DNA of 64,000 nt from Tubulanus polymorphus. Its lineage: Eukaryota; Animalia; Nemertea. Position 1 is the first letter of the stretch. The number at the start of each line of letters is the position of its first letter. Made by a program: the position numbers and the translations under genes. The notes under the pieces were generated by a model. That model saw only the letters and a program-made list of their open reading frames with translations. It was not told the DNA's origin and searched no databases. Of the stretch, positions 13,613-43,821 are shown one piece after another. The DNA lies in assembly GCF_964204645.1 (NCBI RefSeq), contig NC_134032.1, positions 3,434,175 to 3,498,174 on the forward strand, given 5' to 3'.

Positions 13613-15257
13613 CTTAAAATATTCATATATATGAATAACATATAAATGAATAACTTCTAAAATCAATTTTAATAAAAAATTTGATATTAAAATGGAAGCA
13701 AATAAGTACTACTGCCCAACATGTAAGAGAAGTATAGATAAATCTCAAAAAGCAAGACACAATAAAACTAGAACACATTTAGAAAATAAATTGAAATTAG
13801 AATATAAAGATAATATATTAGAAACTAAATTAGAAGAATTAAAGAATGAAAAAGAAACATATAAATGTGATACATGTAATCAATCATTCAGTGATAAAAG
13901 ATATTATAAAGAACATTTGAAATCTCAAAGTCATATTAGAAATATGAATAATGATATTATAGGTGAAGATTATTTTGATAAGGATAATGATAAGAAACAA
14001 AGCGCAATTAAAAGAATAAAAAATAAATTAAACAATAAAAGACCATACATGGAAGATGTAAGAAATTATATTAATTCATTAGATAATAAAAAAGATATAG
14101 AAATAACCGAAGCATTCAAAAGTGATATTGGTCCAGCAGCTATTGAGTTTAAATTTCATAAAGGTAAAACAATAGAAGAAAATAAAAAAACATTTAGAAA
14201 ATATGAAAGAAATAATAAAAATAATTACAGACGTAGAATATCCTAAAATAAGTATTTCATCAAAAGTTAAATTTATAAAATCTGAAGATAAACCAATATA
14301 TAATATAAATTCTCATTCACAACATATTATTTCGAAACAACATATATATGATAAATTAAATAAATGTTATAATGAAATAAAAAGTAAAATAGAAGAGAAA
14401 TATTTTGAAGGATCAGGTTTGATATTTGATGAAATAATATTTATGACTTTACACGTCTATAACACAAAATATAATAAGGTAACTAAATCGAAACCAATTG
14501 ATGAAAATAATTTATCATATTATAAAGAACCAGATATTGAAGCATCGAGTTATATTAAACTACCATTTAAAACTAATGCTGTAATAAATGTACAAAATTT
14601 TGATGATAAATGTTTTTTATGGACAATTATAAGTTGCTTACATCCAACAGAAGATATTACTCATAGTTTTAGATTAACGCATTATAAACCATTTAAAAAT
14701 AATTATAAGATAGATAGTTATCCTGTTAAAATAAAGAATATCCCAAAAATAGAAAGAGATAATAATCTAAAATAAATGTATTTGATTTAATCAGGGAAGT
14801 GTGATGAGATGGAATACGGACGCTATTGTGCAGCTCTTGTCGAATGTGCGTTGTAATTGCCCTAAAGCCGATAACGGTTCGTCGGCGAGCGCTTTGTTAC
14901 GTAACGCGCCGATAAGCGATAACCAGCGAGATCGGGAATCTCCGTAATAATTCAGTTGTTTCCGAATATCGGTTTTTCATCCCATAATAAACTTATATAA
15001 AAATTCCTCTGTAAACTGGTTAAACTCAACACCTGATTTCCCCTCATCAATTTTAGTCAATCAACTTGTATTCACAATTGTCTTAAATTTAAGTGCCCCC
15101 TAGTTTGTCTCTTAACTGCTTCCCTTTAATCTGTTTTAGCGTGTAACTGTTTCTACGTTAATTTTCCTTTAGTTAGTATCATCTCTGATTACTTGAATTA
15201 GTCTCTTTGTCTCTGGATTGTATATATCTCTCATAATTTCTGTAGTATTCATTATTT

Positions 15258-15291
15258 CTGAAGATGACTATTAGGACATAGACGAAACGTT
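15258..15291 (+). ncRNA. Degenerate hammerhead-like motif / Penelope pLTR remnant inside the transposon
   Basis: CTGAAGA-T-GACTAT-TAGGAC-ATAGAC-GAAACGTT with one stem mismatch. Confidence 0.4.
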
Positions 15292-16002
15292 GAATGAACT
15301 ACTAACATTTTTGGACTTTTTCGTTATCATTGTGGGATTATCTCTACATCGCTTCAGACGGATATAGTGTTTTATCAATCGTGATATCGGTTCTTTCCGC
15401 TGTATTAAAATGGCAACGGTTGTCGACGAAATTATAAATGATGACGATTTTGACGATCTATTCTTTGATAGTGACGAATTGGTTCAGATCGATACGGAAA
15501 TATTACGGGAATCCTCTGGATCAGGATCAACTAATTCGGCCGATTCTAGTGAGTGTTATTCCTTTTGAATCAATGAAATATCGGAATAGTTTCCACCTAC
15601 TTGCAGGCACTTTATTCTTTCCTTTTCTTTTTCATATAGGTACTTCTCAGGCTCAGCTGACCAGAGACTGCGATCTGAACACGAGAAAACACATACAGGT
15701 ATTTTTTACATTTATTTTTATAATCAATACAATCCTTTTAGGTTATAAAATAATAAACGAATACAGAAAATAATATATAAACATAATATAAAAAATCCAG
15801 ATAAGTACATGTTAAAATAATAATCATTATTATTATTTTCGCAGGAACGCTATATATTTGGAAAAGGCTATGACTGAAGTGATTAACCATCGAGTATTTA
15901 AATTCAGTTCAAATGGAATGGCAGCAGTACATTATGGAAAATCGATCGATACAATTTTGACTACAAATACGTCGCCGTCCAGACTTGGAATTAACCAGTG
16001 GT

Positions 16003-16247
16003 TTACATGTCCATTGTTTTAATTTGATAGTCACAGGGACAGTTTTTTTTAACGTTTTTGTTCTTACGCCATTTTTGTAATTTGACACGACACATATTAC
16101 AGATATATCTCGGGTACTGTTCATTATCATCATCAAAATCAATGTTGAACAACTCCTTCACATGGCTTTTGAAATTATTTTTATCGATAGGACGACGATC
16201 CGGAGGTTTCGCATTTTTCCACACAGATCCAACACAAAGATCCATGA
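16003..16247 (-). pseudogene. Exon fragment encoding a CxxC...P-x3-CxxC zinc-binding domain (transposon N-terminal, Chapa/RAG1-N/zf-AD-like)
   Basis: After a TTTTAG acceptor, reads LCWIC(G)KNAKPP...VKELFNIDFDDDNEQYPRYICNMCRVKL with a one-base frameshift. Confidence 0.5.
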
Positions 16248-19200
16248 CTAAAAACAAGAAAAGGTTAATTAAATGAGATTGCTGATGCTATTTAGGCAAC
16301 TTGGATTATATGGGAGACAATAATTTGTAGGCCTAATGTAAGCGTTATTAAGTAACATTATTATGTAGTAAATACACATTTTAAATATCATACTTCGTGT
16401 ATATGTTTGTGTCGTAACATAGCAACATGACGTCAGAAACGAAAGCTGCGCGAGTCTGGGCCGAAATATTTGACATCTTCAAGGCCCAAATAACGCTAAA
16501 CCCGGAATCGGAACGAACTGGCAAAAACATATGTTTAACACATAAAAACAGACTTTAATCACAATATAAATACTTAATGTTCCGATACCGGGTTTCGGAG
16601 ATATAGAAGAATAAAAATACATACCTTTTTGGACAAATTTTACGAGAAATTGTTGAATTTCAACCGATTTTCTAAAGAAAAATATGTGTATACACAGCCA
16701 CTTCCACGTTGTTCAATTAACTGCAGTGCGCATGCGTTGTATCGATCGCAGAACATTTATCGGGCTAAAACTATTGCGGGTTGTTCTGCGACCGAATCAA
16801 AGTTGATGTTGACTGGCGTTCAGCTGGTAACACACACTCGATAAGCGTAGCTTACTGCTGTTGCGGTAACCTTTGATGTACGGGCTGAATTGAATAGCCT
16901 ACATCCGGCAATTAAAAGCGTCCGTATTCCATCTCATCACACTTCCCTGATTTAATCAAATTACCCAATACAAAAGGAAATAATATTAAACATTATACAT
17001 TAGAACCTTTATACCTATCAAAAGATTATGATTCAAATAATGTTATAGATATACTATATTATGAAAATCATTATATGTGGATACAACAAATCGATTTATT
17101 TTTCAAATCAGAAAATGATTTTGATAATAAAATATATCTATGTAGAAAATGTTTACATAAATTTAGAACTAAAAGTGCATTATTAAATCATAAACAACTA
17201 TGTGCTAATCATGATTATTGTAAATTAGTTTTACCAAATGAAAAAGATAAAATATTAGAATTCAAAAATATGATTACAAAAATAAAGTGCCATTTGTAAT
17301 ATATGGTGATTTTGAATCATTAAATAAAGAATTAACAGATAAAGATAGAAAAGAAATATATTATAAAAGAAAGAAATTAAATTCTAATGAAAGTGATTAT
17401 TCAGAAGAACCACCAAAAACAAATACTATTAAAAAGATTCATCAATCAGCTGCAGCTTTCGGGTTATATATTAAATCTAATTATCCAGAACAAATTAAAA
17501 GTGAATATTATAATTATAGAAATGAAAATGTTATCAATCATTTTTGTGACTTATTAATTGAATATGAAATAAAATTTAGTAAATTATTGAATACAAATAT
17601 AGAAATTATAATGACAGAAGAAGATAAAGAAGAATTTGAGTTTGCAGATAAATGTTATTATTGTAATCAAATATTCTATTCATATGATAAAAAAGTAAGA
17701 GATCATGATCATTTGAACGGAAAGTTTAGAGGTGCGGCGCATGAGAATTGTAACTTACAAGCTAAGAAAATCAATTTTGTTCCAGTAATATTTCATAATT
17801 TATCAGGATATGACGCACATTTTTTTATCAAACAGCTATGTCATAAAATAGAAGAAATCAATAATGAAATAGAAAGATTAAATTCAAATAGATTAAAAGA
17901 TGACAAAGTATCAACTTAAAAATTTAAAATGCTAGCTAAAACATCCGAGAATTATATATCTTTCCAATTTGGATGTCTAAGATTTATAGATTCATATAGA
18001 TTTTTAAATAGTTCATTAGATAATTTATCAAAATCATTAGTTGATGATGAATTACAAATATTAAAACAACACTATCCAAATAATGATGATTTCCAATTAA
18101 TGAGATATAAAGGAGCGATTCCATATTCTTTCTATAAAAATCATAATGATTTTAATATAACTGAATTATTAAAAGAACAATTCTATGATGAATTAAAAAA
18201 CGAATATGTTAAAGATGAAGTCTATAATAGAACATTGAATATTTGGAATCATTTTGGAATGAAAAATCATGGACAATTAGTAGATTTATATCTAAAATCA
18301 GATGTATTATTATTAACTGATATATTTGAAAGGTTTAGAGATGTAAACCTAAAATATTTTAATATTGATCCATGTCATTGTTATTCTAGCCCAGGATTAA
18401 CTTGGGATTGTGGTTTAAAATTTACAGATATAAAAATGGATTTGTTAACAAATATAGATCAATTATTATTATTTGAAAAATCTATAAGAGGAGGTGTTTC
18501 AGGTGTATTAGGTGATAGATATTTCAATGTAAATGATAACCCCGGATATAAGTTATTATACATAGATGCAAATAATTTGTTGGGCAATGAAAAAATAATG
18601 GTTGGGCAATGATGGAACCACAACCTTATGGAGTATTTGAATTAACTGAAGTTTTACAGAATGAAAATAATGATAAATTTGATTGGAAGAAAAGAATTCT
18701 AGATATTGCAGATGATTCAGATACTGGTTACTTTTTTGTTGTAGATTTAGAATATCCTGAACATATAAAATTCAAATCTAGAAATCTAGCATATTGTCCC
18801 GAACATAAAACTGTTAAACATGAAGAACTATCAAATTACCAGAAAGGAATTAAACCTGCTAATCATATTCATACAGAAAAGTTAATGGTAACTCAAGAAG
18901 ATAAATATAATTATGTAGTACATTATAGAATGTTAAAGTTTTATCTAAATCAAGGAATGATTCTAAAAAAAGTACATAGATATATTTCATTTAACCAATC
19001 TAAGTGGTTAGAAAAATATATAGATTTTAACACCAAACAGAGAACTAAAGCTAAAACTGATTTCGAGAAAGATTTCTTCAAACTAATGAATAATGCATTC
19101 TATGGTAAGACTTGTGAAAATATTAGAAATAGAAATGATATTGAGTTAGTCAGTAATGGTAAAAGAATTAGACATTTACAATCATATCCTAAGTTTTTAT

Positions 19201-25488: not shown

Positions 25489-26736
25489 ATGAGTGGGAGT
25501 TATATAAGTCCTTCTAAGATTTCTAAAATATCTAATGCTATTAAAGCAGAAAGATCACATCATATAATTACTCATAACCCTTCAAATATTAATCCCGATG
25601 AAACTTTATATGTTAGAATTCCTAGATTAACACAAAATACTTTTTACGTTCCAAACAGTATTTATTTATCAGCCGATATAAAAGTATCTGGTCATGATAA
25701 TAATTATGTTTTTGATAATGTTGGAAGATATTTGATTAAAAAGTTAACAATAAAGATTGGTCCAGAAACAGTTTTCTCATTAGATGATTATAATTTATTT
25801 ATGCATTATAAAGATTTATGGTTAACTAAAGAAAATAGAAATAATATGATATTTCAAGGCATCCAATCAGAAAACCAAAATAAATTAAGATCAGAAGCTA
25901 ATAGCGCAATATTAACTAATGTTGTAGATAAATTGATAAAAAGTATATATGGAAGCAAATATAAAATTCCATTAGACTTTGAATTGATAAATAATAATGC
26001 ACCTTTACATAAATACGCAATTCAAGAAGACGTTATATTCGAAATAACATTTGCTCCTGTAAATGAAATTGTATTATCTAGCGTTGTTAAAGATATGAGT
26101 TGTAAATTATCGAATATATGTTTAGAATATGATACAGTAACTGATGAAAATATTTCAAGTATAATTCAAACTCAATACAATCAAGGATTTTCATTATTAT
26201 ATGATTATATTGATAAATTTAAAACCGTAACTATTAATGCAAATGATGAAATAATTAATGAGAATATTAACTTCCCAAGAAGATCTATTAAAGGTATACT
26301 AATATTTTTTACCATTGCAACATATACTAATGGCGCAATAAATGTTGATAATTATTATAATCCTGAAATAACAAAAGTAGAAATAACTATCGAAGGAATA
26401 GCAAATAAAATATTTTGTCAAGGAATGAGAATGATTGATCAATGGCCAGAAATTAGAAAACATTTTATGAATGAAAAAGTAAAATCATCTGAAAATTGTA
26501 ACATTAATCAAATTGATTATTATACCGGCAATAGATATGCATTATGGTTAGATTTTAGAACAACAGAGGATAATTCATTACATGGTTCTGGAAAAAAACT
26601 ACAGAACACTAAAGATGGAATACAATTATTCATGACAAAGAATAAAGGAATCAAAAATTTTAAAATGCACATTTATATTATATCTGACGCACAATTAAAT
26701 ATCGTAAATTCACAATTAGATAGTGTTATGTATTAA
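25489..26736 (+). CDS. Major capsid protein, double jelly-roll type (only copy in the cluster)
   Basis: 415-aa intact ORF with beta-rich pattern typical of Polinton-like MCPs (LIKKLTIKIG, YKIPL, LSNICLEYD, ALWLDF...HGSG, IYIISDAQLNI); genomic context. Confidence 0.75.
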   Translation: MSGSYISPSKISKISNAIKAERSHHIITHNPSNINPDETLYVRIPRLTQNTFYVPNSIYLSADIKVSGHDNNYVFDNVGRYLIKKLTIKIGPETVFSLDDYNLFMHYKDLWLTKENRNNMIFQGIQSENQNKLRSEANSAILTNVVDKLIKSIYGSKYKIPLDFELINNNAPLHKYAIQEDVIFEITFAPVNEIVLSSVVKDMSCKLSNICLEYDTVTDENISSIIQTQYNQGFSLLYDYIDKFKTVTINANDEIINENINFPRRSIKGILIFFTIATYTNGAINVDNYYNPEITKVEITIEGIANKIFCQGMRMIDQWPEIRKHFMNEKVKSSENCNINQIDYYTGNRYALWLDFRTTEDNSLHGSGKKLQNTKDGIQLFMTKNKGIKNFKMHIYIISDAQLNIVNSQLDSVMY

Positions 26737-26768: not shown

Positions 26769-27446
26769 ATGGAAGGAGGTAAAGTATATGAAAGAATCAA
26801 AGCTGATAAAGAAATCAATGATGATTTGTATTATGTAATACCTTATAAAAGAATAAATGAATATATTGGAACATTTTTATTAAACGAATTAAATCAATAC
26901 AAAGAATATTTAATTGAACGTAATAATAATATTGATATAAAAATAGAAGATAATATTGAAACAAAAATAGAAGATAATATTGAAACAAAAATAGATAATA
27001 ATATTGAAAAAAAAATAGAAGATAATGTTATACCTTCTACATCGAATGATGATAAGATTGAAACAAAAATAGAACATAATATTGAACCTAAAATAGAAAA
27101 ATCAAATGTTCAACCAAAAGATAACATCAGATGTATGTATTGTGAAGAAGATTTTGATAATTATAATGATTATTTATTGCACATCAAAAAAGATGAACAT
27201 ATTTTACAATTAGTAAAAACATATGCTAATATATATAAAGATAAATGCAAAGAGGATCAGAATTATTGTGCCTTCTGTAATGAATGTATAACAAAGGCTA
27301 ATTGGGCAAAACATTATAAATTAAAAACTAAAGGTGGAAATGATTCGGCCCATGCAATACAGGTATTTAAATCTTGGTGTGAAAAATGTAAAGAATATGT
27401 AATATATGATAAACAATTGAATCATAAATACTCAATTAAACATATT
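26769..27446 (+). pseudogene. Triple C2H2 zinc-finger protein, element A, 5' part (3' part at 43441-43807)
   Basis: CMYC..H..H, CAFC..H, CEKC..H; 24-bp (IEDNIETK)n repeats at ~26928-27023; split by element B. Confidence 0.85.
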
Positions 27447-27712
27447 AGTAATAGGGGTAATAGGCTTTCAGATCAAAGGTCGAACGGTTGAGCTCGTAAA
27501 AAATGAAAAACATAAAAATAATTACAATTTCTACTTGAATTACTCGCGAAACTCATAAAAATGAAAAATAAATTCTCACACGCTCGAATTTATTTTTCAT
27601 TTTATGAGTTTCACTCCTAATTCAAGTAGAAATTGTAATTATTTTTATGTTTTTCATTTTTACTCACCCGCCCGTTCAACCTTTAACCCGAAAGCCTATT
27701 ACCCCTATTACT
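27447..27712. repeat. Terminal palindromic hairpin of element B (266 bp)
   Basis: AGTAATAGGGGTAATAGG...internal loop TCGCG/CACTC...tip loop TCACACGCTC...CCTATTACCCCTATTACT. Confidence 0.95.
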
Positions 27713-27794
27713 CTTAAAATATTCATATATAAATGAATAACATTTAAATCATTGAACTTCTAAAATCAATTTTAATAAAAAATATAGTATTAAA

Positions 27795-30700
27795 ATGGAA
27801 GCAAATAAATACTACTGCCCAACATGTAATATCGATATAGATAAATCTCAAAAAGCAAGACATAATAAAACTAGAACACATTTAGAGAATAAATTGAAAC
27901 TAGAATATAAAGATGATATATTAGAAACTAAATTAGAAGAATTAAAGAATGAAAAAGAAACATACAAATGTGATACATGTAATCAATCATTCAGTGATAA
28001 AAGATATTATAATGAACATTTAAAATCTATAAGTCATATTAGAAATAAGAATAATGATATTTTAGGTGAAGATTATTTTGATAATGATAAGGATAAGAAA
28101 CAGAAGACAATTAAAAGAATAAAAAATAAATTAAACAATAAAAGACCATACATGGAAGATGTAAGAAAATATATTAATTCATTAGATAATAAAAAAGATA
28201 TAGAGATAACCGAAGCATTTAAAAGTGATATTGGTCCAGCAGCTATCGAGTTTAAATTTCATAAAGGAAAAACAATAGAAGAAAATAAAAAACATTTAGA
28301 AAATATGAAAGAAATAATAAAAATAATTACAGATGTTGAATATCCTAAAATAAGTATATCTTCTAAAGTAGAGTTTATAAAATCTGAAGATAAACCAATA
28401 TATAATATAAATTCTCATTCACAACATATTATATCTAAACAACATATAGATGATAAATTAAATAAATGTTATAATGAAATAAAAACTAAAATAGAAGAGA
28501 AATATTTTGAAGGATCTGGTTTAATATTTGATGAGATAATATTTATAACTTTACATGTTTATAACACAAAATATAATAAGTTAACTAAATCAAAACCAAT
28601 TGATGAAAATAATTTATCATATTATAAAGATGATAGTATAAATGGAACAAGTTATATTAAATTACCATTTAAAACTAATGGTGTAATAAATATACAAAAT
28701 TTTGATAATAAATGTTTTATATGGGCTATAATAAGTTGTTTACATCCTGCAACTTATAATATTTGTAGATTAACTCATTATAAACAATTTGAAAATAATT
28801 ATAAGATAGATAAGTATCCTGTTAGAATTAAAAATATTCCAAAAATAGAAAGAGATAATAATCTTAAAATAAATGTATTTGATTTAATTAAATTACCAAA
28901 TACAAAAGGAAATAATATTAAACATTATACATTAGAACCTTTATATCTATCAAAAGATTATGATTCAAACGATGTTATAGATATACTATATTATGAGAAT
29001 CATTATATGTGGATTAAACAAATAGATTTATTTTTTAGAACAGAAAGTGATCACCATAATAAAATATATCTATGTAGAAAATGTTTACATAAATTTAGTA
29101 ATGAAAGTACATTATTAAATCATAAACAACTATGTGATAATCATGATTATTGTAAATTAGTTTTACCAAATGAAAAGGATAAAATATTAGAATTCAAAAA
29201 ATATGATTACAAAAATAAAGTACCATTTGTAATATATGGAGATTTTGAATCATTAAATAAAGAATTAACAGATAAAGATAGAAAAGATATATATTATAAA
29301 AGAAAGAAATTAAATTCTAATGAAAGTGATTATTCAGATGAACCACCAATAACAAATACAATTAAAAAGATTCATCAATCAGCTGCAGCTTTTGGGTTAT
29401 ATATTAAATCTGATTATCCAGAACTAATTGAAAGTGAATATTATAATTATAGAAATGAAAATGTTATCAATCATTTTTGTGACTTATTAATTGAATATGA
29501 AATAAGATTTAGTAAATTATTGAATACAAATAAAGAAATAATTATGACAGAAGAAGATAAAGAAGAATTTGAGTTTGCAGATAAATGTTATTATTGTGAA
29601 AAACTATTTAATTATAAAGATAAAAAAGTAAGAGACCATGATCATTTGAATGGTAAATTTAGAGGTGCAGCGCATGAGGCTTGCAATTTACAAGCCAAAA
29701 AAGAAAATTTTGTCCCCATTATATTTCACAATTTATCGGGGTATGACGCGCATTTATTCATTAAGCAACTGTGTCATAAAATAGAAGAAATTAATAATGA
29801 AATAGAAATATTAAATTCAAAAAGATTAAAAGATAACAAAGTATCAACTTATAAATTTAAAATACTAGCTAAAACATCTGAAAATTATATTTCATTTCAA
29901 TTTGGTTGCATTAGATTTTTAGATTCTTATAGATTTCTAGCAAGTTCATTAGATAATTTATCAAAATCATTAGTTGATGATGAATTACAAATATTAAAAC
30001 AACATTATCAAAATAATAATGATTTTAAATTAATGAGATATAAAGGTGCAATTCCATATTCTTTCTATAAAAATCATAATGATTTTAAAATAACTGAATT
30101 ATTGAAAGAACAATTCTATGATGAATTAAAAAATGAATATGTTAAAGATGAAGTATATAATAGAACATTGAATATTTGGAATCATTTCAAAATAGAAAAT
30201 CATGGACAATTAGTAGATTTATATTCAAAATCAGATGTATTATTATTAACCGATATATTCGAAAGGTTTAGAGATGTAAACCTAAAATATTTTAATATTG
30301 ATCCATGTCATTGTTATTCATCACCAGGATTAACATGGGATTGTGGTTTAAAATTTACAGATATAAAAATGGATTTGTTAACAAATATAGATCAATTACT
30401 ATTATTTGAAAAATCTATAAGAGGAGGAGTTTCAGGTGTATTAGGTGATAGATATTTCAATGTAAATGATAACCCTGGATATAAGTTATTATATATAGAT
30501 GCAAATAATTTGTATGGTTGGGCAATGATGGAACCACAACCTTATGGGATGTTTGAATTAACTGAAGTTTTACAAATTGATAAATTTGATTGGAAGAAAA
30601 GAATTCTAGATATTGCAGATGATTCAGATACTGGTTACTTCTTCGTTGTAGATTTAGAATACCCTGAAAATATTAAATTCAAATCTAGAAATCTAGCATA

Positions 30701-31823
30701 TTGTCCCGAACATAAAACTGTTAAACATGAAGAATTATCAAATTATCAAAAAAGAATTAAACCTGATAATCATATTCATACTGAAAAGTTAATGGTAACT
30801 CAAGAAGATAAATATAATTATGTAGTACATTATAGAATGTTGAATATTTATTTGAATCAAGGAATGATATTAAAAAAAGTACATAGATATATTTCATTTA
30901 ATCAATCTAAGTGGTTAGAAAAATATATAGATTTTAATACTACACAGAGAACTAAATCTAAAACTGATTTTGAGAAGGATTTTTTTAAATTGATGAATAA
31001 TGCATTTTATGGAAAAACATGTGAAAATATTAGAAATAGAAATGATATTGAGTTAGTTAGTAATGGTAAAAGGATAAGACATTTGCAATCATATCCGAAA
31101 TTTATAGGCAACAGAATATTCGATGAAAATTTAGCTGCAGTTAAAATGAAGAGAACTTCTATGAAGTTCAATAAACCAATCTATGTTGGAGCTGCAATTT
31201 TAGAATTATCAAAGTTATTAATGTATCAATTTTACTATAACATATTACAACCTCATTTTGGGGAAAAGCATATTGAAATATTATATTTTGATACTGACAG
31301 TTATATACTAAAAATCAAGACAAATGATATAACAAAAGACTTAAAAATATTAAAACACCATTTTGATTTTAGTAACTATCCTAAAAATCATGAATTGTTT
31401 AGCAATGATAATAAAAAAGTTCCCGGTAAATTCAAAGATGAATTAGGTGGTGAAGAAATGATAGAGTTCATTGGTATTAGATCTAAAATGTATAGTTATA
31501 AAACTAAAGAACATGAAGCTAAAAAGTTAAAAGGAATAACCAAAAGTGTAGTAGAAAAGAATATTCATTTCAAAGATTACATCAATTGTATATTTAATGA
31601 AGAAGTTAGAAAACATAAAATGAAATGTTTAAGATCTGAAGATCATGAAATGTATATTGAAGAGATAGAGAAGATAAGTCTAAACCCATTTGATGATAAA
31701 AGATATATTTTAGATGATGGAATTCACACAATCGCGTATGGTTGCAATTTAGATGAATATATAAAATTCAAAAGAGAAGAAACAAAAGAAAATGAGATTA
31801 TGAAAAGGATTCTAGCGTGTTAA
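27795..31823 (+). CDS. polB: Protein-primed-type family B DNA polymerase with N-terminal Zn fingers, OTU-like domain and endonuclease VII-like insert
   Basis: 1342 aa intact; DNKCF...ENHY, YGDFES, CYYC...RDHDHLNGKFRGAAHEACN, FHNLSGYD, YIDANNLYG, KLMNNAFYGK, YFDTDS. Confidence 0.95.
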   Translation: MEANKYYCPTCNIDIDKSQKARHNKTRTHLENKLKLEYKDDILETKLEELKNEKETYKCDTCNQSFSDKRYYNEHLKSISHIRNKNNDILGEDYFDNDKDKKQKTIKRIKNKLNNKRPYMEDVRKYINSLDNKKDIEITEAFKSDIGPAAIEFKFHKGKTIEENKKHLENMKEIIKIITDVEYPKISISSKVEFIKSEDKPIYNINSHSQHIISKQHIDDKLNKCYNEIKTKIEEKYFEGSGLIFDEIIFITLHVYNTKYNKLTKSKPIDENNLSYYKDDSINGTSYIKLPFKTNGVINIQNFDNKCFIWAIISCLHPATYNICRLTHYKQFENNYKIDKYPVRIKNIPKIERDNNLKINVFDLIKLPNTKGNNIKHYTLEPLYLSKDYDSNDVIDILYYENHYMWIKQIDLFFRTESDHHNKIYLCRKCLHKFSNESTLLNHKQLCDNHDYCKLVLPNEKDKILEFKKYDYKNKVPFVIYGDFESLNKELTDKDRKDIYYKRKKLNSNESDYSDEPPITNTIKKIHQSAAAFGLYIKSDYPELIESEYYNYRNENVINHFCDLLIEYEIRFSKLLNTNKEIIMTEEDKEEFEFADKCYYCEKLFNYKDKKVRDHDHLNGKFRGAAHEACNLQAKKENFVPIIFHNLSGYDAHLFIKQLCHKIEEINNEIEILNSKRLKDNKVSTYKFKILAKTSENYISFQFGCIRFLDSYRFLASSLDNLSKSLVDDELQILKQHYQNNNDFKLMRYKGAIPYSFYKNHNDFKITELLKEQFYDELKNEYVKDEVYNRTLNIWNHFKIENHGQLVDLYSKSDVLLLTDIFERFRDVNLKYFNIDPCHCYSSPGLTWDCGLKFTDIKMDLLTNIDQLLLFEKSIRGGVSGVLGDRYFNVNDNPGYKLLYIDANNLYGWAMMEPQPYGMFELTEVLQIDKFDWKKRILDIADDSDTGYFFVVDLEYPENIKFKSRNLAYCPEHKTVKHEELSNYQKRIKPDNHIHTEKLMVTQEDKYNYVVHYRMLNIYLNQGMILKKVHRYISFNQSKWLEKYIDFNTTQRTKSKTDFEKDFFKLMNNAFYGKTCENIRNRNDIELVSNGKRIRHLQSYPKFIGNRIFDENLAAVKMKRTSMKFNKPIYVGAAILELSKLLMYQFYYNILQPHFGEKHIEILYFDTDSYILKIKTNDITKDLKILKHHFDFSNYPKNHELFSNDNKKVPGKFKDELGGEEMIEFIGIRSKMYSYKTKEHEAKKLKGITKSVVEKNIHFKDYINCIFNEEVRKHKMKCLRSEDHEMYIEEIEKISLNPFDDKRYILDDGIHTIAYGCNLDEYIKFKREETKENEIMKRILAC

Positions 31824-31851
31824 TCAATTTCAATAAAAATTTGTATAATAA

Positions 31852-32193
31852 ATGGAGAGTAAACAAGTACACAATGAATTCTTAGATAGAATTAAAGATA
31901 CTTCAAACGTCAAATCTGTAGATTATAAATTTAAAAAACTAACTGAGTTAACAATTCACAAGAAATATTTAATTACTAACATTGAAACAATTACTAATAA
32001 ATATGGAGATAAATTAGTAATTCATTTAGAATATGAAGGATTAAAAGGAAATAAATATAAATTCAGAACTTATTTACCAGATAGATTTCATAGATTATCA
32101 AGTGAAGATTTAGAAGAATTATGTTCTGGAGATTTCTATTTCGTATACAAAGGTAAGAATGAAAAAGGGCACCATGAAATAGATTTCGAATAA
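31852..32193 (+). CDS. Small OB-fold-like (putative ssDNA-binding) protein
   Basis: 113 aa, KKLTEL...KKYLI...TNKYG...YLPDRF...FVYKG pattern seen in Polinton-associated small proteins; function inferred. Confidence 0.6.
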   Translation: MESKQVHNEFLDRIKDTSNVKSVDYKFKKLTELTIHKKYLITNIETITNKYGDKLVIHLEYEGLKGNKYKFRTYLPDRFHRLSSEDLEELCSGDFYFVYKGKNEKGHHEIDFE

Positions 32194-32210
32194 GAAAATA
32201 TGTAAAATAA

Positions 32211-32966
32211 ATGGTGGAATTAAAAGAATACAGAATATATGTTGATTCTAGAAAACTTACAAATTATAAATCACATAATTTACTAGTACAATTAGGCAGA
32301 GAATTCAAGAATTGTGTAGATTTAAAATTAGTTAATATAAGTTTATGTAATTCTTTTTACAATGTATCGGATAAAACTTTTGAACATAGAGGGTTTATGA
32401 TTTATATGAGAAATAAAGATAAATGGTTTCATATATTTTTAAAACCAGGATTATATAATTTAGAATCATTAGCACAGGAAATTAATAGAAGAGCTCGGTT
32501 GAAAATCGGGGGCAATTCTGTATTTGAAATTAGATTTAATAAAATTGATAGTACTAATAAAATAAGAATAAAGATATCTAATGAACAACATAAATTAATG
32601 GTAAACAAACCACTGGCTAAAATGTTAGGAATTAAACCGCTTACAGTTACTGGAAACGCAGAAGGCAGCTCAAATATAATACCTTTTACGCACTTTTATA
32701 TTTATTGCAATTTAATCGAGCCCACAAAAACTTTCGAAGCAACTAAAGAAACAATTTGTAGTTCTAGTATACTAAATATTTTACCGCTAAAAAATGTTAA
32801 ACAATTTGGAACTCAAATAAATTATAATTTAACAGAATGTGATTTTAAACCTTGCATTCCTAAATTTAATAATTTTAAATTAGAAATAAGAAATCATAAT
32901 GGATACTTAATTGATTTAAATAACTTTCCTGTGATATATGAATTAGTTATAAGATGTAGAGAGTAA
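32211..32966 (+). CDS. Minor capsid protein (penton, single jelly-roll)
   Basis: 251 aa; IYVDSR N-terminus, PGLYN, IYCNLI, SILNILP, IDLNNFPVIYELVI C-terminus typical of Polinton/virophage mCP. Confidence 0.8.
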   Translation: MVELKEYRIYVDSRKLTNYKSHNLLVQLGREFKNCVDLKLVNISLCNSFYNVSDKTFEHRGFMIYMRNKDKWFHIFLKPGLYNLESLAQEINRRARLKIGGNSVFEIRFNKIDSTNKIRIKISNEQHKLMVNKPLAKMLGIKPLTVTGNAEGSSNIIPFTHFYIYCNLIEPTKTFEATKETICSSSILNILPLKNVKQFGTQINYNLTECDFKPCIPKFNNFKLEIRNHNGYLIDLNNFPVIYELVIRCRE

Positions 32967-32982
32967 TTTTATTGATATATAA

Positions 32983-33336
32983 ATGAATATAACTGTTGGA
33001 CCGAGTATATGTTTTGGATTTGATTTTAAACGTGAGAAAGAAATGAAATTTAATATTAATGATGTAATAACACATATCAAAAATATTGCATTTTCTAATG
33101 AAACAACATTTGAGTATGAAACAACAATAGATAAAGAAACTTTAAATGTAGAAAAGATTACTAATTTAATTAGAGAATCTTTAAGATTTTATGAAGTAGA
33201 TGAAGATTTTATAATCGATGATATTAAAAAAATAATTGAAATATATACAAATGAAACTAGTAATGAAATAAATGTTGAATTAATCATAAATAAGATAACT
33301 AAATATTTTGATGATAGTAATTTTTTTGATAAATAA
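32983..33336 (+). CDS. Hypothetical viral protein (117 aa)
   Basis: Intact ORF, conserved upstream motif, homologue in A. Confidence 0.75.
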   Translation: MNITVGPSICFGFDFKREKEMKFNINDVITHIKNIAFSNETTFEYETTIDKETLNVEKITNLIRESLRFYEVDEDFIIDDIKKIIEIYTNETSNEINVELIINKITKYFDDSNFFDK

Positions 33337-33558
33337 ATGAGTGATAATAAGTGGATAATAACTGGATTATATAATGGCGCATTACTATCAGTTGGAACTG
33401 TTGGTTATTCAATGGTATTAAAAAAAGTATTCAAAATGGGAAGTGTTAATGTTGATAGATTTGATATAAATGATATTTTGAAATTAACATTAGCAGTTAC
33501 TTTATCTAATTTAACTATTGATTATTTGGAAAAACAAAAATATATTCCTCCCATATAA
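33337..33558 (+). CDS. 73-aa putative membrane protein, element B
   Basis: Same protein as 21462-21683 with synonymous differences. Confidence 0.85.
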   Translation: MSDNKWIITGLYNGALLSVGTVGYSMVLKKVFKMGSVNVDRFDINDILKLTLAVTLSNLTIDYLEKQKYIPPI

Positions 33559-33582
33559 ATGCATAATTTTTTTGTTAAATAA

Positions 33583-34005
33583 ATGACATCTGCAATTATA
33601 ACTATTATAGGATCAGCAATTGTTAACGCTTTAGCATTTACTGGTGGTGGATATTTATTTAAACATATTGATAAAAATAGTTCATTAGGAGAACAAAGAA
33701 GACATAACTTAGCGTTAGAGAAATATAATAAAGCTGCAGAAGAATATAGAGAAAAGAGACAAAACTATATGGATTACATCAATAAAGAATTATATGATCA
33801 GAAGATTTCACATAGAGATTTTCAATCAGTTGATGATGCAATGAGTTTATATAACGCAGTAACCAATAAAGAAAAATTACATCTATACAAACCTAAATTA
33901 TCAGATTATTATACCCCGAGTAAAGAACAACAGAAATATGAAATAATTTGGATTTTAGGTGGAACAGTTATTGTTATATTTGTTGCTTATAAGTTCACTA
34001 ATTAG
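33583..34005 (+). CDS. 140-aa putative membrane protein, element B
   Basis: One residue different from A copy; two hydrophobic segments. Confidence 0.85.
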   Translation: MTSAIITIIGSAIVNALAFTGGGYLFKHIDKNSSLGEQRRHNLALEKYNKAAEEYREKRQNYMDYINKELYDQKISHRDFQSVDDAMSLYNAVTNKEKLHLYKPKLSDYYTPSKEQQKYEIIWILGGTVIVIFVAYKFTN

Positions 34006-34024
34006 TAATTTTTATTCTAAATAA

Positions 34025-34459
34025 ATGGAAGATAAAGTTGATAATATTGATATTATTCCTCATGATATAAATAAAACTAAATTAAAAACATATTTAGAAA
34101 AACAAATATTAGAATTTGAAAGTGACTTAAAGATAAAAAAGAAAAAATATTCAAAAAGTAAAATTATATATTATTTGATTATAAGTGGTTCGGTTACAAT
34201 TAGTTCTGTAATAACATTTCTAGCAATATTCAGTCCATTAACACCTTTAGCTATATCAATTGGTGTATTAGGATTAAGTTCAAGTGTTTTAACTGGTATA
34301 AGTTCAAAATTAAATATAAAAAGTAATAAAGAAAAAATTAAAACTAATATAAAAGAAATTAATAAATTAAAGAACACACTAGATTATATAATAAGTTTAA
34401 ATGGTTATATAACAGTTGAAGAACAAGATAAATTATTAAAAGAATTAATAAATTATTAA
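34025..34459 (+). CDS. 144-aa two-TM coiled-coil protein, element B
   Basis: IIYYLIISGSVTISSVITFLAIF and LAISIGVLGLSSSVLTGI flanked by charged helices. Confidence 0.85.
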   Translation: MEDKVDNIDIIPHDINKTKLKTYLEKQILEFESDLKIKKKKYSKSKIIYYLIISGSVTISSVITFLAIFSPLTPLAISIGVLGLSSSVLTGISSKLNIKSNKEKIKTNIKEINKLKNTLDYIISLNGYITVEEQDKLLKELINY

Positions 34460-34476
34460 TTTTTTTAGTTATATAA

Positions 34477-35784
34477 ATGGTAGATAGTTTTCCAAAAGCT
34501 TTCCAATACAATAAATCAATTAAATATAATATTCCAGCAATAGATTTTAATAAAGATATTACATATAGAAATGAAGTTTTAGATTCATTAACTAATTTAG
34601 AAATTTATGTTAATGAATCACAGTTTTTTATTTCTAAAATGGAAAATATATTTAATACACATGAAGTTACTTTTACTCGAGATGAATATCATATATATAA
34701 AGTAAAATCTAATATGAAGTATTGGCAGAATCAATTAAATTTTGCTGTTTATTGTGCAACAACAGGATGTGGAATAAGTTGGAATGATCATTTAAATAAC
34801 TTAGATAAAAATTTGAAGTATTCTGATTTAAAATTAATTCACACAATATTTAGATTTCACACATATTTTCAAATCAGAATAATATTAAATGAATTAGAAT
34901 GTCCTTTACCCGGGTCTAAATATTTTAAAGAATTGGATAATAATATTAATATATCCAAGTTTTATAAAATATGTAATGAATTTAATATAAATATTAATTC
35001 CGATTTTAGAGCGCATGGTAAATTGCAAGGTGTTGGTGAAGAGTATGAAATAAAAAGAATTGATTATATGCATAGAATTTCAGCTTATCATAATTATAAA
35101 ATTGATAATAATAATGGTTGGGTTTATTTCATTTTAGAAAATGGTGAAGGTTTTACAAAATCAGGTATACAAAGAATAAATCAATCTATTAGAATTTATT
35201 TGATATGTATTTTAGGCGCTCAAGTTGAAACAAGATCCCCAATAATTGGAAATGATAACACTTCATTCGATGCGCAGAAACAGTTTAAAGTTTTATTTGA
35301 AGATTCCATACATAATGATAAAAATAGATCGATTCCAGAAAACATTGTAAGATATCAAAATTATTTAGATAAATCTCATGTAAGACTTAATTATTGTATA
35401 GGCCCTAATCTATTAATTATTTCTAATGATTTAGTATTAAAGATGGGAAACATAATTGGTTATAATAATCTAATTAAAACTGCAACAATAAATAATTCAT
35501 TTGGATTAAATGATATAAATAAAAAGATTATTACTGCTCCAAAATTAATGGAAGGTGAAAAAAATAAAAAACATATTCAATCAACTGAAACTAAAACTAA
35601 GAATATTAAATTGGATAATGATTCCAAAATAAAAGATTATAATACATCAGAAGATATAAAAACTGATAATATTCAACATGATATAATTAAACTAAATGAT
35701 AATAATAAATCCCATGAAAATACTAAATTAGCTTTAACTTGTATAGGAATTGTAATCGGAGGAATATTATATTTTAAATTTTAA
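34477..35784 (+). CDS. 435-aa conserved viral protein with C-terminal TM anchor
   Basis: YWQNQLNFAVYCATTGCGISW motif; C-terminal LALTCIGIVIGGILYF. Confidence 0.85.
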   Translation: MVDSFPKAFQYNKSIKYNIPAIDFNKDITYRNEVLDSLTNLEIYVNESQFFISKMENIFNTHEVTFTRDEYHIYKVKSNMKYWQNQLNFAVYCATTGCGISWNDHLNNLDKNLKYSDLKLIHTIFRFHTYFQIRIILNELECPLPGSKYFKELDNNINISKFYKICNEFNININSDFRAHGKLQGVGEEYEIKRIDYMHRISAYHNYKIDNNNGWVYFILENGEGFTKSGIQRINQSIRIYLICILGAQVETRSPIIGNDNTSFDAQKQFKVLFEDSIHNDKNRSIPENIVRYQNYLDKSHVRLNYCIGPNLLIISNDLVLKMGNIIGYNNLIKTATINNSFGLNDINKKIITAPKLMEGEKNKKHIQSTETKTKNIKLDNDSKIKDYNTSEDIKTDNIQHDIIKLNDNNKSHENTKLALTCIGIVIGGILYFKF

Positions 35785-35800
35785 TTTTTTTATTATGTTA

Positions 35801-36817
35801 ATGGATGTAGAAGGTGGAGAAGATTATGAAATGGGAGAAATGGGAAATAATAATGAGGGATATATTGATGATGAACCACAACCCGATTTTAATGAAACTA
35901 ATATTGATAATGATGATGAATCAGCATATAATTCTAATTTAGCAGATAGTGGTTATAAAGCCCCATCAACAGATGAATTTGATAGAAGAACTAGATCGAG
36001 AATAAATCCTGAAAATGAAAATCAAGGTTTAAAAAAGGAAGATTTAGAAAATATTGGATTTATATATAAGTTTCAAGATGTATTTGAAAGATCTGGATAT
36101 AATATAAATTACAGAGGCGCCAGACTTTTAGTACAAGATTTAAAGTTTTTAGATGGTGAATATTATTATCATTTGAAAGATGATTACTATATTAATATCA
36201 CTAATCAAAGTACAAAACTAAGTAAAATATTAGCAGAATCAACTTTGCTTAAGTTAGAACCAGATAGAATTAAGAGAATAAGTAATAGTAATGAAATAAC
36301 TGATGTTACACAAGAAGAAAGAAATAATAATATAAGAGTATTTAGTGAAAGAATTGATAACTTATTTAAAATAATCGATAATAATTTAGAAACGGAAATG
36401 GAAGAGAATAGAGATAGATTAAGATCTTCAACACCTGAAACATCGAGAAGAGACACTCAACAAATTGATAATGATTCAAGTCAATTACAATTAGTATTAG
36501 AAAAACAAATTGATAGATTAAGAGATTCATTTGACGAAGAGATGAATAGTATTGGAATAAATCGAATACAATCTTTACTAGAAAAAGGATTACTTGATTT
36601 AACTGATGATGAATTAGAAGCATTTCCTGAACAAACACGTAGAGAAATTAAAGGTATGCAAGAATCAGCTGATAAAATTGCGCATGAAAAAAGTAAAAGA
36701 GATATTAAAATTAACATTTTAGAAAAAGAATTAACTGATAAAAATAAAGAAATAGAAAAATTAAAGTCTGATTTAGACCATCAAGTAATTGATGAAATAG
36801 AATATAGGATAAGATAA
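35801..36817 (+). pseudogene. Coiled-coil membrane protein, element B, 3'-truncated by deletion
   Basis: Homology with A ends at IDEIEYR (~36808) and jumps into the Zn-finger gene repeats. Confidence 0.85.
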
Positions 36818-37676
36818 TATTGAAACAAAAATAGAAGATAATATTGAAACAAAAATAGAAGATAATGTTATACCTTCTACATCGAATGATGATAAGATTG
36901 AAACAAAAATAGAACATAATATTGAACCTAAAATAGAAAAATCAAATGTTCAACCAAAAGATAACATTAGATGTATGTATTGTGAAGAAGATTTTGATAA
37001 TTACAATGATTATTTATTACACATCAAAAAAGATGAACATATTTTACAATTAGTAAAAACATATGCCAATATATATAAAGATAAATGTAAAGAGGATCAG
37101 AATTATTGTGCCTTCTGTAATGATTGTATAACAAAGGCTAATTGGGCAAAACATTATAAATTAAAAACAAAAAGTGGAAATGATTCAGCCCATGCAATAC
37201 AAGTATTTAAATCTTGGTGTGAAAAATGTAAAGAATATGTAATATATGATAAACAATTGAATCATAAATACTCAATTAAACATATTGGTACAGATAATGT
37301 AATAGAAAATCCAAAAGTTATAAATCCAAAATTTAATAATAAGAATATATTAGATTATCGGTGGTATAGAAAAACATTTATAGATTATTTATTGAGTAAT
37401 GATATAGTTACCATATTGAAAAAGTTAGATAACTTTAAACCAAATGTAACTTATGCAATGAACTTATTTGAACTTAAATATGATGATTTTAGAGAATTGT
37501 TAAATAAACATCCATCTAAAACTGAAATCGAAAATTATATTCCAAAAATATTTTCAAGAAAAACATTCAGGAATTATAAACTTGGGAATTATTTAGGACC
37601 TATACCAATAAAAATACAAAGGGATATATATTTAGAATACAATAAGCTTAAAGAAAAATATGAAAATGAAAATTAA
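36810..37676 (+). pseudogene. Zinc-finger protein, element B, 5'-truncated
   Basis: Contains the uninterrupted equivalent (CATATTGGTACAGATAATGTAATAG) of the site where B sits in A. Confidence 0.85.
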
Positions 37677-37680
37677 AAAG

Positions 37681-38294
37681 ATTATAGAATTCACTGTATA
37701 TTGATGGATGAATGGATGAGTTGGAAGAGTTGGATGAGTTGGATGAGTGGAAGAGTGGATGAGTATAATAATATATATATTTTACTTTTTAACACATAAA
37801 TTGGAAGAATAGTGAGTATAAATATAATATTTTTATTCTTTATTGAATTTAACACAAATTAAATTTAACACAATATATATTTATTATTATATGATATTTA
37901 TTATTTATTATTATATGACATTTATTATTTATCATTTTATTATTTATTATTTTATAAAAATATATTTATTATTATATGAAATTTATTATCTGTCATTTTA
38001 TTATTTTATAAAAATATATTTATTATTTATCATTTTATTATTTATCATTTTATTATTTATTATTTTATAAAAATATATTTATTATTATATGACATTTATT
38101 ATCTGTCATTTTATTATTTTATAAAAATATATTGATTATTATATGACATCTTCAAATCAAACTCTTACTGTTTTAAAAATAAAAAACATATGTAAATTAT
38201 ATATTATTACACTCTTCCATTCATCCACTCTTCCAATTCATCCAATTCATCCAATTCATCCACTCATCCATCAATATACAGTGAATTCTATAAT
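37681..38294. repeat. Central fold-back between convergent gene blocks, element B
   Basis: Inverted arms ATTATAGAATTCACTGTATATTGATGG(ATGAGTTGG)n ... (CCAATTCAT)nCCATCAATATACAGTGAATTCTATAAT around an AT-rich low-complexity spacer. Confidence 0.9.
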
Positions 38295-38310
38295 ATTTTG
38301 AATTAGGATT

Positions 38311-38925
38311 TTATTTTATAAATTTATATTCATATGGAAATTGTAATCTCATTAATAATTTTGAACCTTTATTATTTTTTAATTTATTCATATATTCATC
38401 ATGTAATTCAGTAGGTATAATTTGATTTTCTTCCAATGATTGTTGCATAGATTTTCTATCTTTGTTGTAGAATAAAACTAGAAATCTTATATTCTCTCTA
38501 AAATCTTTCACAATTGAATTATATTTCTGATTTAAAACCCATGTTGTTATCCCAAAATGTCTACCAGAGAAAGCTAAATAACATAACTCACTTTCTCTAA
38601 TTTTAGAATCATGTAAATTTGCGCAATCATCGATAATAAATAATGTATTAGATCCTTTATAAATATCTAATGTAATTTTTATACAATTATCTAAATTATC
38701 TTTCACTGTTTTAGAATTTAATATAATAAACTTTTTATCTTTAAAAACTATATCTCTATTATACGTTTCATTCATTTCATAAGTAGGACAGAATAATATT
38801 ATATTATCAAAATGATTCTTATAAATAGTTTCTAATAAATCTAATATGAAGTGTGTTTTACCGCAGTTTGTAACTCCAGTTATTAACATATTATGTGGTT
38901 CAAATATAAATAAATCTTTATTCAT
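38311..38925 (-). CDS. A32/FtsK-like genome-packaging ATPase, element B
   Basis: Walker A GVTNCGKT, Walker B LFIIDD, GRHFGITTWVLNQ. Confidence 0.92.
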   Translation of the reverse strand: MNKDLFIFEPHNMLITGVTNCGKTHFILDLLETIYKNHFDNIILFCPTYEMNETYNRDIVFKDKKFIILNSKTVKDNLDNCIKITLDIYKGSNTLFIIDDCANLHDSKIRESELCYLAFSGRHFGITTWVLNQKYNSIVKDFRENIRFLVLFYNKDRKSMQQSLEENQIIPTELHDEYMNKLKNNKGSKLLMRLQFPYEYKFIK

Positions 38926-40005
38926 TTATTCTTTTAATTTTACTAGACAAAATCCATTCATTAAATTTATCATCATATCCTTCATATTTCACCAAAGAAT
39001 ACTTTTTTCCTTTAAGAGTTTTTGTTTTCAATACTTTTTCTATTTTGTATTCTATTTCATCTGGATTTGGTACTAATGATAATTCTTGTTCATAAAAATA
39101 ACCTAATATTTCTTCATCTTTTAAATCAAACAATTTATAAACAAATGGTTTAGTTAATATTATCTTTTTAATTTTAAATATTTCTTCAGTAAAATTTGGG
39201 GTATAACCTTTATAAAATGTTTTTCTATATTTAGAAATTCTAACGTGTTGTCCTATTTTAAATTTAGGTTCTCCAAAATCATGTGTAACAAACGCTCCAT
39301 ATAAATTATTCCAAACTATTTCTGAATTTTCTTCTTTTCTAGCTTATATAGGTTTCATATTTATAGAACTATGTTTAGAATTATTATAACCTTTCACTAA
39401 ATCTTCTAATACATCGATATATTTATATGTTTCATTAGCGGTGAAATATTTCCACATTCTAGTTTTCAATGTTTTATTAAATCTTTCTATAACAGATGCT
39501 TTTTTATCTGAATGTGTTGAAAAATATTCTACATCGTTATCAGTTAATAGTTTTTTAAAATGTTTGTTATAAAATTCTTTACCTTCATCAAATTGTATTT
39601 TATCTGGGATAGCTTCTTTAAATATTAATTTGAAAGAATTTGTAACTTCTATACCAGTTTTATTTTTAATCGGGATACTCCATGCGTATCTACTGAATAT
39701 ATCTATAACATTTAGTATCCAAAAATATCCTTTGTTATATTCTTCAAAGATTTCATGTCAATCAAATCAGCTTGCCATTGTTGGTCAATATATGAAACCA
39801 TTACTTTTCTTGTTAAATATTTTTTATCCATCTTTTTATGAATTTGATATGTTGGTTGATTTTGTAACCATGATTTTAATTCACTATATTTTATATCACC
39901 ATTATCGGATTTAATTTTATTCCATAATTCTGAAACACTTGAATATGATACTTCACTTTCTGGGTTATAATATAAATCTCTTAAATATTGTTCTTTTTTC
40001 ATCAT
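38918..40005 (-). pseudogene. Retroviral-type (rve) integrase with chromodomain, element B
   Basis: WQADLIDM, frameshift near 39745, nonsense near 39344, C-terminal chromodomain. Confidence 0.9.
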
Positions 40006-40008
40006 ATT

Positions 40009-40368
40009 TCAATCCATTAATAATATTTTAGATTTAGTTTCAATGGTTTTATGATTTGACTTATTTTCTGGTATGATAGGTTTATTATCATTAGAATCAT
40101 CTTTATCATCGGATTTGAATTTTGATTTATATATTACACCGGATAATATAATAACTGTGATTAACCCAATTGTAATATATAAGTAATTATAAGATTCAGC
40201 TGTGCTGAATCTATTAGATGGATTATTATTTGAATCAATATCAGATTCATTTATATCAGTTAATTTCTTTTTCTTAGCTTTTTTTAATTCTGATGATCTT
40301 TTACCTAATTCTCTTGCCCATTTAATTTGTTTCTCGGATCTAGCCTTTTTCTTAACTCCATCACTCAT
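40009..40368 (-). CDS. Basic single-TM protein (119 aa), element B
   Basis: RSEKQIKWARELGK plus YITIGLITVIILSGVIY; homologue in A. Confidence 0.8.
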   Translation of the reverse strand: MSDGVKKKARSEKQIKWARELGKRSSELKKAKKKKLTDINESDIDSNNNPSNRFSTAESYNYLYITIGLITVIILSGVIYKSKFKSDDKDDSNDNKPIIPENKSNHKTIETKSKILLMD

Positions 40369-40966: not shown

Positions 40967-41192
40967 TTATATTAGAGAAATTTAATAAGAATAGTATTAT
41001 AAGTATTCTTCAAATGATACTAGCTAGTTAAAGTTAAAGAATTCTAGTATTAGTTATTGTTTTTTTTAGTATTTTTTATTTGTGATATAAAGTATTCTTT
41101 TTTGAAAAGAAAATATTAAAAATTAAAATAGAAATAATAGATAGTTGAAGGTATGTAATTTTTATTATATTTTATTTGAGATATATTATTCT

Positions 41193-43807: not shown

Positions 43808-43821
43808 GTTCTATTTATATA

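Follow-up and report, generated by a model that had tools for sequence, protein, structure and literature searches.

Mismatches in the terminal palindrome of a Tubulanus polymorphus Polinton are predicted to restrict tight folding to the 3'-end strand

Introduction

In the 64,000-nucleotide stretch of Tubulanus polymorphus DNA analysed here (the window), an imperfect palindrome is found at positions 27447-27712. The initial annotation had proposed that the differences between its two arms are conserved and strand-biased, as expected for a self-priming 3' hairpin. This raises the questions of what the palindrome is, whether only one of its strands is suited to fold, and what such a fold would do. 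Terminal palindromes have been reported in protist virophages and PLVs, mostly without pPolB (bioRxiv 10.64898/2026.07.28.741278; papers are cited throughout from the parts of their texts available to us). In the literature outside the founding Polinton papers, Repbase and subscription journals, terminal hairpins with a strand bias and a single orientation did not turn up for any pPolB Polinton.

Results

The palindrome is the left end of a nested Polinton

The stretch 27447-27712 is an element end, namely the left terminal palindrome of an endogenous Polinton (adintovirus). The locus that holds it (13419-53265) is nested. Element 2 (27447-43446) lies inside the zinc-finger gene of element 1, and a third fragment (49352-53265), an inverted 5' part headed by hairpin D, abuts a remnant of the right terminal inverted repeat (TIR) of element 1 (49262-49357). 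The features of the locus are the following.

13419-13612, plus strand: hairpin A, left terminal palindrome of element 1, with orientation and bias as in B
27447-27712, plus strand: hairpin B, left terminal palindrome of the nested Polinton (element 2), 266 nt; outer arm about 27447-27575, loop 27576-27585, inner arm 27586-27712
52872-53265, minus strand: hairpin D, terminal palindrome of the third copy, which is inverted and truncated (49352-53265)
27713-27908, plus strand: inner part of the left TIR of element 2, extending into the start of PolB
43239-43446, minus strand: right TIR of element 2, which retains its inner part and 6 nt of the inner arm but not the remaining palindrome
27795-31823, plus strand: pPolB ORF, open, 1342 aa
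25489-26736, plus strand: capsid-like ORF, with Atlas feature matches of 0.97-0.98 to viral clusters, DJR capsid families being in the minority
26769-27446, plus strand: zinc-finger ORF of element 1, broken by element 2; element 1 continues at 43447
38311-38925, minus strand: A32-type packaging ATPase (Pox_A32, E 1.6e-12); second copy at 44264-44797
44790-45665, minus strand: rve integrase with chromodomain (rve E 1e-9, Chromo E 2e-4)
47160-47834, minus strand: stand-alone ORF with an HNH-like motif, recognized by eye in the translation; second copy at 41193-41861

The three arm pairs quoted by the initial annotation for A, B and D were found in the window as given when each outer arm was aligned with the reverse-complemented inner arm. 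The palindromes are imperfect and 194-394 nt long, and on the inner side each is followed by a common short flank and then by the PolB gene. All three outer ends begin with AGT, and we take termini of the form 5'-AG...CT-3' to be a Polinton feature. The TIRs of element 2 (27707-27908 and 43239-43440) differ by 3 mismatches in 202 nt, and its right palindrome was lost at a joint with 4-nt microhomology; both right-hand palindromes are absent, as instability of long palindromes would lead one to expect. None of the elements in the window has both ends, and the flanks where a target-site duplication (5-8 bp) would be sought, left of A and right of D, differ and come from different copies. The pairing of A and D as two ends of one element was rejected, since there is no duplication, their identity is about 90%, and element 1 has its own right TIR remnant at 49262-49357. 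The reading of B as a stand-alone MITE was also rejected, given that a flanking duplication is absent and the sequence runs on into PolB.

The Polinton/Maverick (adintovirus) features found are pPolB, an rve integrase, TIRs (100-1500 bp class), a 5'-AG end and an A32 ATPase, and by its sequence the element is an animal Polinton/adintovirus, a virus-like mobile element. The rve match exceeds the Pfam cut-off at 44790-45665 and at 39344-39757, the integrase copy of element 2 (38918-39757) being spread over separate open frames. An unbroken counterpart of the zinc-finger ORF is present at 36811-37676. For the ORF at 25489-26736, which had no Pfam match and a low recognition score, the capsid label comes from Atlas features and is weak. 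The stand-alone ORF at 47160-47834 had no Pfam HNH match, and 'HNH-like' is our presumptive label for it. Neither a HUH/NS1-type nickase-helicase nor an adenain-like maturation protease was matched in the Pfam scan of 30 ORFs, the copies being rearranged in the case of the latter.

Other insertions and genes were noted in the window. A 2.2-kb DNA transposon (14792-16949), which interrupts the PolB gene of element 1, has terminal inverted repeats of 29 nt (CAGGG...CCCTG) and shows a duplication of 7 bp. An intronless ORF for a rhodopsin-family GPCR (54209-55273; 7tm_1, E 2e-18) is the main sign of an animal host.

Mismatches favour the fold of the 3'-end strand

According to the initial annotation, the arm differences give G.T wobbles on the strand that carries the 3' terminus and C.A mismatches on its complement. 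Each mismatch was assigned to a class according to the pair that it makes on the strand with its 3' end at the terminus (the 3'-end strand; in B, the minus strand). Among the 66 substitution mismatches of the three hairpins, this strand forms 28 G.T, 19 G.A and 2 G.G pairs, with T.T (6), A.A (3), A.C (2) and C.T (2) among the rest; these are raw counts that include the loops and the diverged interior of D, from copies that share ancestry. With 28 G.T against 2 A.C, the proposed wobble asymmetry was borne out. The G.A class forms a further part of the bias that the initial annotation had not described: in total, 49 mismatches are G-type and 4 C-type, the non-Watson-Crick nucleotides on the 3'-end strand comprise 52 G and 4 C, and tandem 5'-GA/5'-GA motifs occur 5 times on this strand and never on the other. 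Tandem sheared G.A pairs are stable in DNA. Sheared G.A as such is mentioned in PMC6061790.

When each alignment column was counted once, the first 98 columns held 15 distinct mismatch columns, of which 12 are biased towards the 3'-end strand and 1 towards the 5'-end strand, with 1 mixed and 1 neutral column left (sign test, p=0.003 for 12:1 and p=0.007 for 13:2). The well-paired first 110 nt of hairpin D, taken alone, gave 6:0, and control inverted repeats elsewhere in the window (n=3) gave 2:8, 4:7 and 6:2. The orientation is thus the same for most columns but not 'always', as had been claimed, the exceptions being position 43 in B, position 46 in A and position 113 in D. As to the conservation of the mismatches, at position 35 an outer C faces an inner T in all three copies, and no other position is mismatched in all three. 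Position 35 is in this respect unlike the 33 columns in which the arms co-evolve, the copies differing yet each still being paired, although the AT-rich alignment is less certain there.

Folding energies were computed with DNA parameters for both strands of the three window copies, as the initial annotation had suggested. The 3'-end strand folds better by 5.7, 10.5 and 9.9 kcal/mol, and in all three predicted folds its final 25 nt are all paired, in agreement with the earlier expectation of a paired 3' end. The minus strand of B is accordingly both the carrier of the 3' end and the better folder. The mismatches are predicted to let only the 3'-end strand fold tightly, with the same orientation in the copies examined.

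Inverted repeats of another kind, made of 9-nt units around an AT-rich spacer, lie inside both elements between convergent gene blocks (37663-38312 and about 43790-44188) and are without reverse-strand bias (2:8 and 4:7).

Mutation does not account for the bias

Without any selection on structure, the same asymmetry might go back to a single ancestral palindrome and to CpG decay or one-strand deamination. Shared ancestry does make the raw counts exaggerate independence, 4 transition columns are in CpG context, C>T and A>G changes on the 3'-end strand likewise yield G.T pairs, and one control repeat reaches 6:2. However, the G.A class (19:2) and the tandem GA/GA motifs (5:0) are beyond the reach of deamination, and the mismatch columns vary between copies while their direction is constant. 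CpG decay is strand-symmetric anyway, and the observed/expected CpG ratio is 1.12 in both host flanks, which are not depleted, and 1.49 in the hairpins. The mutational spectrum was taken from three-way singleton changes among the PolB-side DNA of the three window copies. On the coding (5'-end) strand, C>T (43/312) and G>A (42/450) differed with p=0.08 in the direction opposite to the prediction, and A>G (62/1608) and T>C (54/1128) with p=0.26, so that the spectrum is near symmetric. Tested against the CpG-decay null proposed by the initial annotation, the bias is explained neither by CpG decay nor by strand-biased deamination. A purely mutational origin is therefore largely rejected and in our view very improbable.

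Raw reads confirm the terminus and show one orientation

Raw reads from another study with the same species label (about 12% of the run) were mapped to B and D. Read depth climbs about 60-fold at 27447, where 2316 reads carry unrelated letters before the 27446/27447 boundary (agreement 0.34-0.36), and 2273 reads run off the outer arm of D beyond 53265 into heterogeneous flanks. The position 27447 is thus a sharp terminus found at many insertion sites. The depth at the terminus, about 60 times that of the adjacent internal zinc-finger gene, declines along PolB (27300-28000), which suggests many non-autonomous derivatives that retain the ends. Some reads omit about 300 nt of the interior of D (52882-53230), so that the hairpin also occurs in much shorter versions; where such reads are anchored on the inner flank, they retain the G-rich loop on the 3'-end strand.

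The variants found in the reads agree with the strand bias. The outer arm carries C in 1271 of 2787 reads at position 27 and in 2389 of 2713 at position 47, with no matching inner-arm variant among those listed, and the inner arm carries G at position 42 (375 of 1628 reads), with no outer-arm variant among those listed. At position 35 on D, where depths are about 1900 and 2800, neither an inner-arm T>C (52906) nor an outer-arm G>A (53231) was present among the 40 of 107 variants listed, the weakest of which had 222 reads. Selection on the folding of one strand, as the initial annotation had supposed, is supported by the joint bias of G.A and tandem GA pairs, by the failure of CpG decay and deamination, and by the same asymmetry in the reads. 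We conclude that selection on the fold of the 3'-end single strand, and hence one-strand folding, is well supported. Since the bias concerns the 3'-end strand, that end would have to be single-stranded at some stage and need to fold.

A search for flip/flop isomers had also been suggested. All three window copies are in one orientation, and the flipped isomer was seen neither in them nor among the read variants listed. Variants at positions 26 and 28 (about 24%) fit subfamilies like copy A and not flips, because outer-arm positions 28 and 35 have no corresponding variant among those listed. None of the 6 largest loose-end groups (of 198; smallest 386 reads) runs off the terminal side of the inner arm, and a group anchored on the inner flank has T at position 35. 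From the variants and loose-end groups listed, the flipped share is bounded at roughly 10-15% and not at zero; flips are concealed in reads that lack a flank, since these are assigned to their best-fitting place. All copies examined are integrated, so that orientation may have been filtered by integration.

These data bear on the self-priming reading of the initial annotation. In the form considered here, the folded 3'-OH would prime the second strand and give a hairpin-closed duplex and a dimer junction, one arm of which would be nicked by an HNH/Endo VII-type nuclease. The kept mismatches would tell the arms apart, so that one orientation is retained, and protein priming may act at open ends. 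The pairing of the last 25 nt of the 3' end in the three predicted folds speaks for this reading, and asymmetric resolution would also explain a fixed mismatch: at the parvovirus left end, a fixed asymmetric position directs single-orientation resolution (PMC1185569), and hairpin priming has been proposed for the terminal palindromes of protist virophages and PLVs (bioRxiv 10.64898/2026.07.28.741278). Against it, the missing flipped isomer excludes symmetric resolution of the AAV type, no HUH/NS1-type protein was present among the 30 ORFs scanned, and the letters outside the terminus are heterogeneous (0.34-0.36) and not the inner flank expected of a dimer junction, although the reads are expected to hold integrated copies only.

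The polymerase retains a predicted terminal-protein domain

The PolB protein comprises zinc fingers, a PRD1-like terminal-protein domain (Ser241), a vOTU domain (Cys307, His403), the exonuclease and the polymerase. Of 7979 candidates scored, 1513 matched it, and the nearest named match was the PolB of a Corynactis coral adintovirus (36%). Its homologues carry PF03175, of which the ORF itself gave no direct match in the Pfam scan. All 69 aligned proteins have Ser241, Cys307 and His403 unchanged, and each of the three window copies retains the Ser and Cys motifs. Residues 110-700 were modelled with AlphaFold2 (mean pLDDT 81.7, pTM 0.42); the model shows a beta-sheet with two helices and places Ser241 in the loop that joins helix 2 to the last strand. 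Its best fold matches were little-finger domains of Y-family polymerases (E about 0.01, probability 0.99), none of them reaching E 0.001. The terminal-protein domains of Polintons are described as having a little-finger-type fold, such a position of the linking residue and an origin from Y-family polymerases (PMC11161782). The polymerase is thus predicted from the model to retain a terminal-protein domain with its linking serine.

An Endo VII/HNH-like insert was detected in the exonuclease (residues 585-632; E 8e-5, slightly under the Pfam cut-off), with invariant Cys/His residues, and it resembles HNH inserts in PolB described in bioRxiv 2023.08.22.554363. The insert would provide a nuclease for self-priming, yet it is widespread in relatives (motif in 54 of 111 loci), including one, L013, with a palindrome-less end. 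Some of the PolB homologues (P0010, P0033, P0056) contain PF14890 and/or PF14528. We take these to be intein and LAGLIDADG families.

The terminal palindrome looks lineage-specific

Alignment scans yielded 127 related PolB loci, while a single-protein scan of viral contigs found no relatives. In five candidate termini of distant relatives (L013, L039, L053, L086, L135), all of them contig ends that start in the manner of a Polinton end, inverted-repeat scans showed no terminal palindrome, a result to be read with the fact that short-read assembly can lose palindromes. The clade would then not need a terminal palindrome, and the trait looks lineage-specific. The terminal-protein residues are also conserved in relatives with palindrome-less ends, so that their conservation is uninformative on the role of the hairpin. 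L032, the only close relative (76% PolB identity), begins inside PolB and its end is missing. A scan for the terminus motif gave 23 matches, none with a hairpin, and these were dismissed as chance.

The relatives showed other arrangements as well. In L032 (4079-7154) PolB is immediately followed, without a change of strand, by an HNH-like gene, two small genes and the integrase, a layout unlike that of elements 1 and 2. Within a related element in L019, a branched 184-nt palindrome (4657-4840) separates divergent HNH-like and PolB genes and is flanked by sequences that resemble Polinton terminal repeats and face outward. In L039 the TIR (1-180) includes telomere-like TTAGGG repeats in runs, and a terminal palindrome is absent.

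Discussion

A folded 3' end as a possible protein-primed origin

The selected fold of the 3'-end strand is common to all readings that we consider here, whether protein-priming, self-priming or attC-like, and the hairpin likely helps to restart the copying of the element's DNA. Tentatively, and with somewhat less than even confidence, we favour the reading in which the 3' end of the displaced strand folds back and rebuilds a duplex origin for protein priming. Strand-displacement replication would release a single strand bearing the 3' end, which in the cell would fold back into a short local duplex copy of the terminus. This hairpin would take over the job of the long-range panhandle proposed for adenovirus and PRD1, and the polymerase's own terminal-protein domain would prime a new strand on the folded end. 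Priming at the very 3' base would copy the hairpin without inversion, which would account for the absent flipped isomer. The kept mismatches, chiefly position 35, would identify the outer arm as the genuine terminus at which initiation or integration takes place, a distinction that would be needed because the inner-arm boundary otherwise resembles a terminus; they would also weaken cruciform extrusion, a process that involves both strands. There is precedent for parts of this model. Streptomyces has 3' telomeres that contain sheared G.A pairs when folded, and it is protein priming that patches them (PMC4513846). The panhandle model is a further precedent, although direct evidence for it is described as lacking (PMC11886824).

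The weak point of protein priming on the folded end is that the same polymerase could simply extend the paired 3'-OH, which makes a ready primer, and none of our findings would block such extension. The self-priming 3' hairpin of the initial annotation holds in its first part, the selected fold of one strand; for the priming step, flip/flop was not seen and the polymerase keeps its terminal-protein domain. As this domain retains its predicted linking serine, priming by the protein at the folded end is at least as good a fit. Self-priming is viable in an asymmetric or hybrid form alone, the simple parvovirus-style form not being supported, and in the form set out above we consider it possible but doubtful.

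It is unlikely, in our judgement, that the hairpin, instead of being a replication origin, is recognized or processed as a single strand in the way of the bottom strand of integron attC, whether for excision, for removal of the terminal protein, for integration, for protection of the end or for packaging. Duplex ends are the substrate of rve integrases, and one-strand excision requires both the 5' and the 3' ends, whereas the 3'-end form alone is favoured here. In favour of such a site, G.T pairs and purines are enriched on the strand of attC that must fold and is used (PMC5027507), although attC is a substrate of a tyrosine recombinase and not a genome end. In addition, the removal of the terminal protein before Polinton integration is described as unexplained (PMC11161782), and the mismatches of the Vaccinia hairpin serve virion maturation (PMC8956199).

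Protein priming on the folded end might also be combined with self-priming. In such a hybrid end, a protein-primed origin would lie within a one-way hairpin formed by the 3' end of the displaced strand alone, which would also self-prime and be nicked asymmetrically by the polymerase's Endo VII-like domain. This proposal is speculative, and we rate it as slightly more unlikely than an attC-like site.

Comparison with known systems

The element shares with Alpha-PolB adintoviruses (PMC8502044, PMC11161782, bioRxiv 2023.08.22.554363) a pPolB with terminal-protein and vOTU domains and an HNH-type insert, the rve integrase with chromodomain, the A32 ATPase, a capsid-like gene, the TIRs and the 5'-AG end. 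Unlike in those, each TIR here opens with an imperfect palindrome of 194-394 nt that has a one-strand bias and a fixed orientation; in the available parts of the three papers, the word 'hairpin' appears in one reference title only. The virophages of Halocafeteria seosinensis and the PLVs of subtype 4 (bioRxiv 10.64898/2026.07.28.741278) likewise have palindromes at the TIR ends beside the insertion site, for which hairpin priming has been proposed. They differ in being protist elements, with a palindrome of 52 nt in the figured case and preferentially without pPolB, and the main text of that report, whose supplements may list pPolB cases, is without an analysis of mismatches, strand or orientation.

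The Streptomyces telomeres (PMC4513846) are alike in that the 3'-end strand folds with sheared G.A pairs and terminal-protein-primed copying proceeds without inversion. They are a comparison of working principle only, as they are bacterial, have an internal origin, short clover-leaf palindromes and the proteins Tap and Tpg, whereas here there is one long stem and a terminal protein fused to pPolB. The left-end hairpin of autonomous parvoviruses (PMC1185569) is also an imperfect 3' terminal hairpin with an asymmetric mismatch, reported in one orientation, but it belongs to a ssDNA genome with an NS1 nickase, which was not found here, where integration is by an rve integrase. A paired 3' terminus able to prime, a feature of parvovirus-type rolling hairpins, is shared in the predicted fold, while flip and flop in similar amounts, as in AAV and poxviruses, is not seen here, the flipped share being at most about 10-15%.

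Conclusions

Terminal palindromes are here extended from protist elements that mostly lack pPolB to an animal Polinton that has it, and the absence of flip/flop narrows the hairpin-priming model proposed for the protist elements. The ends of the element carry a sequence signature of a single-stranded, folding 3' end in an element that keeps protein priming and an open polymerase gene. Together they provide a defined natural DNA substrate and an enzyme with which protein priming can be told from self-priming. The finding bears on Polinton replication, on the reuse of the displaced strand and on the shedding of the terminal protein before integration. The hybrid end, if true, would bring together protein-primed and rolling-hairpin replication within a single element, and it could be the missing route by which the end is freed from the terminal protein before integration.
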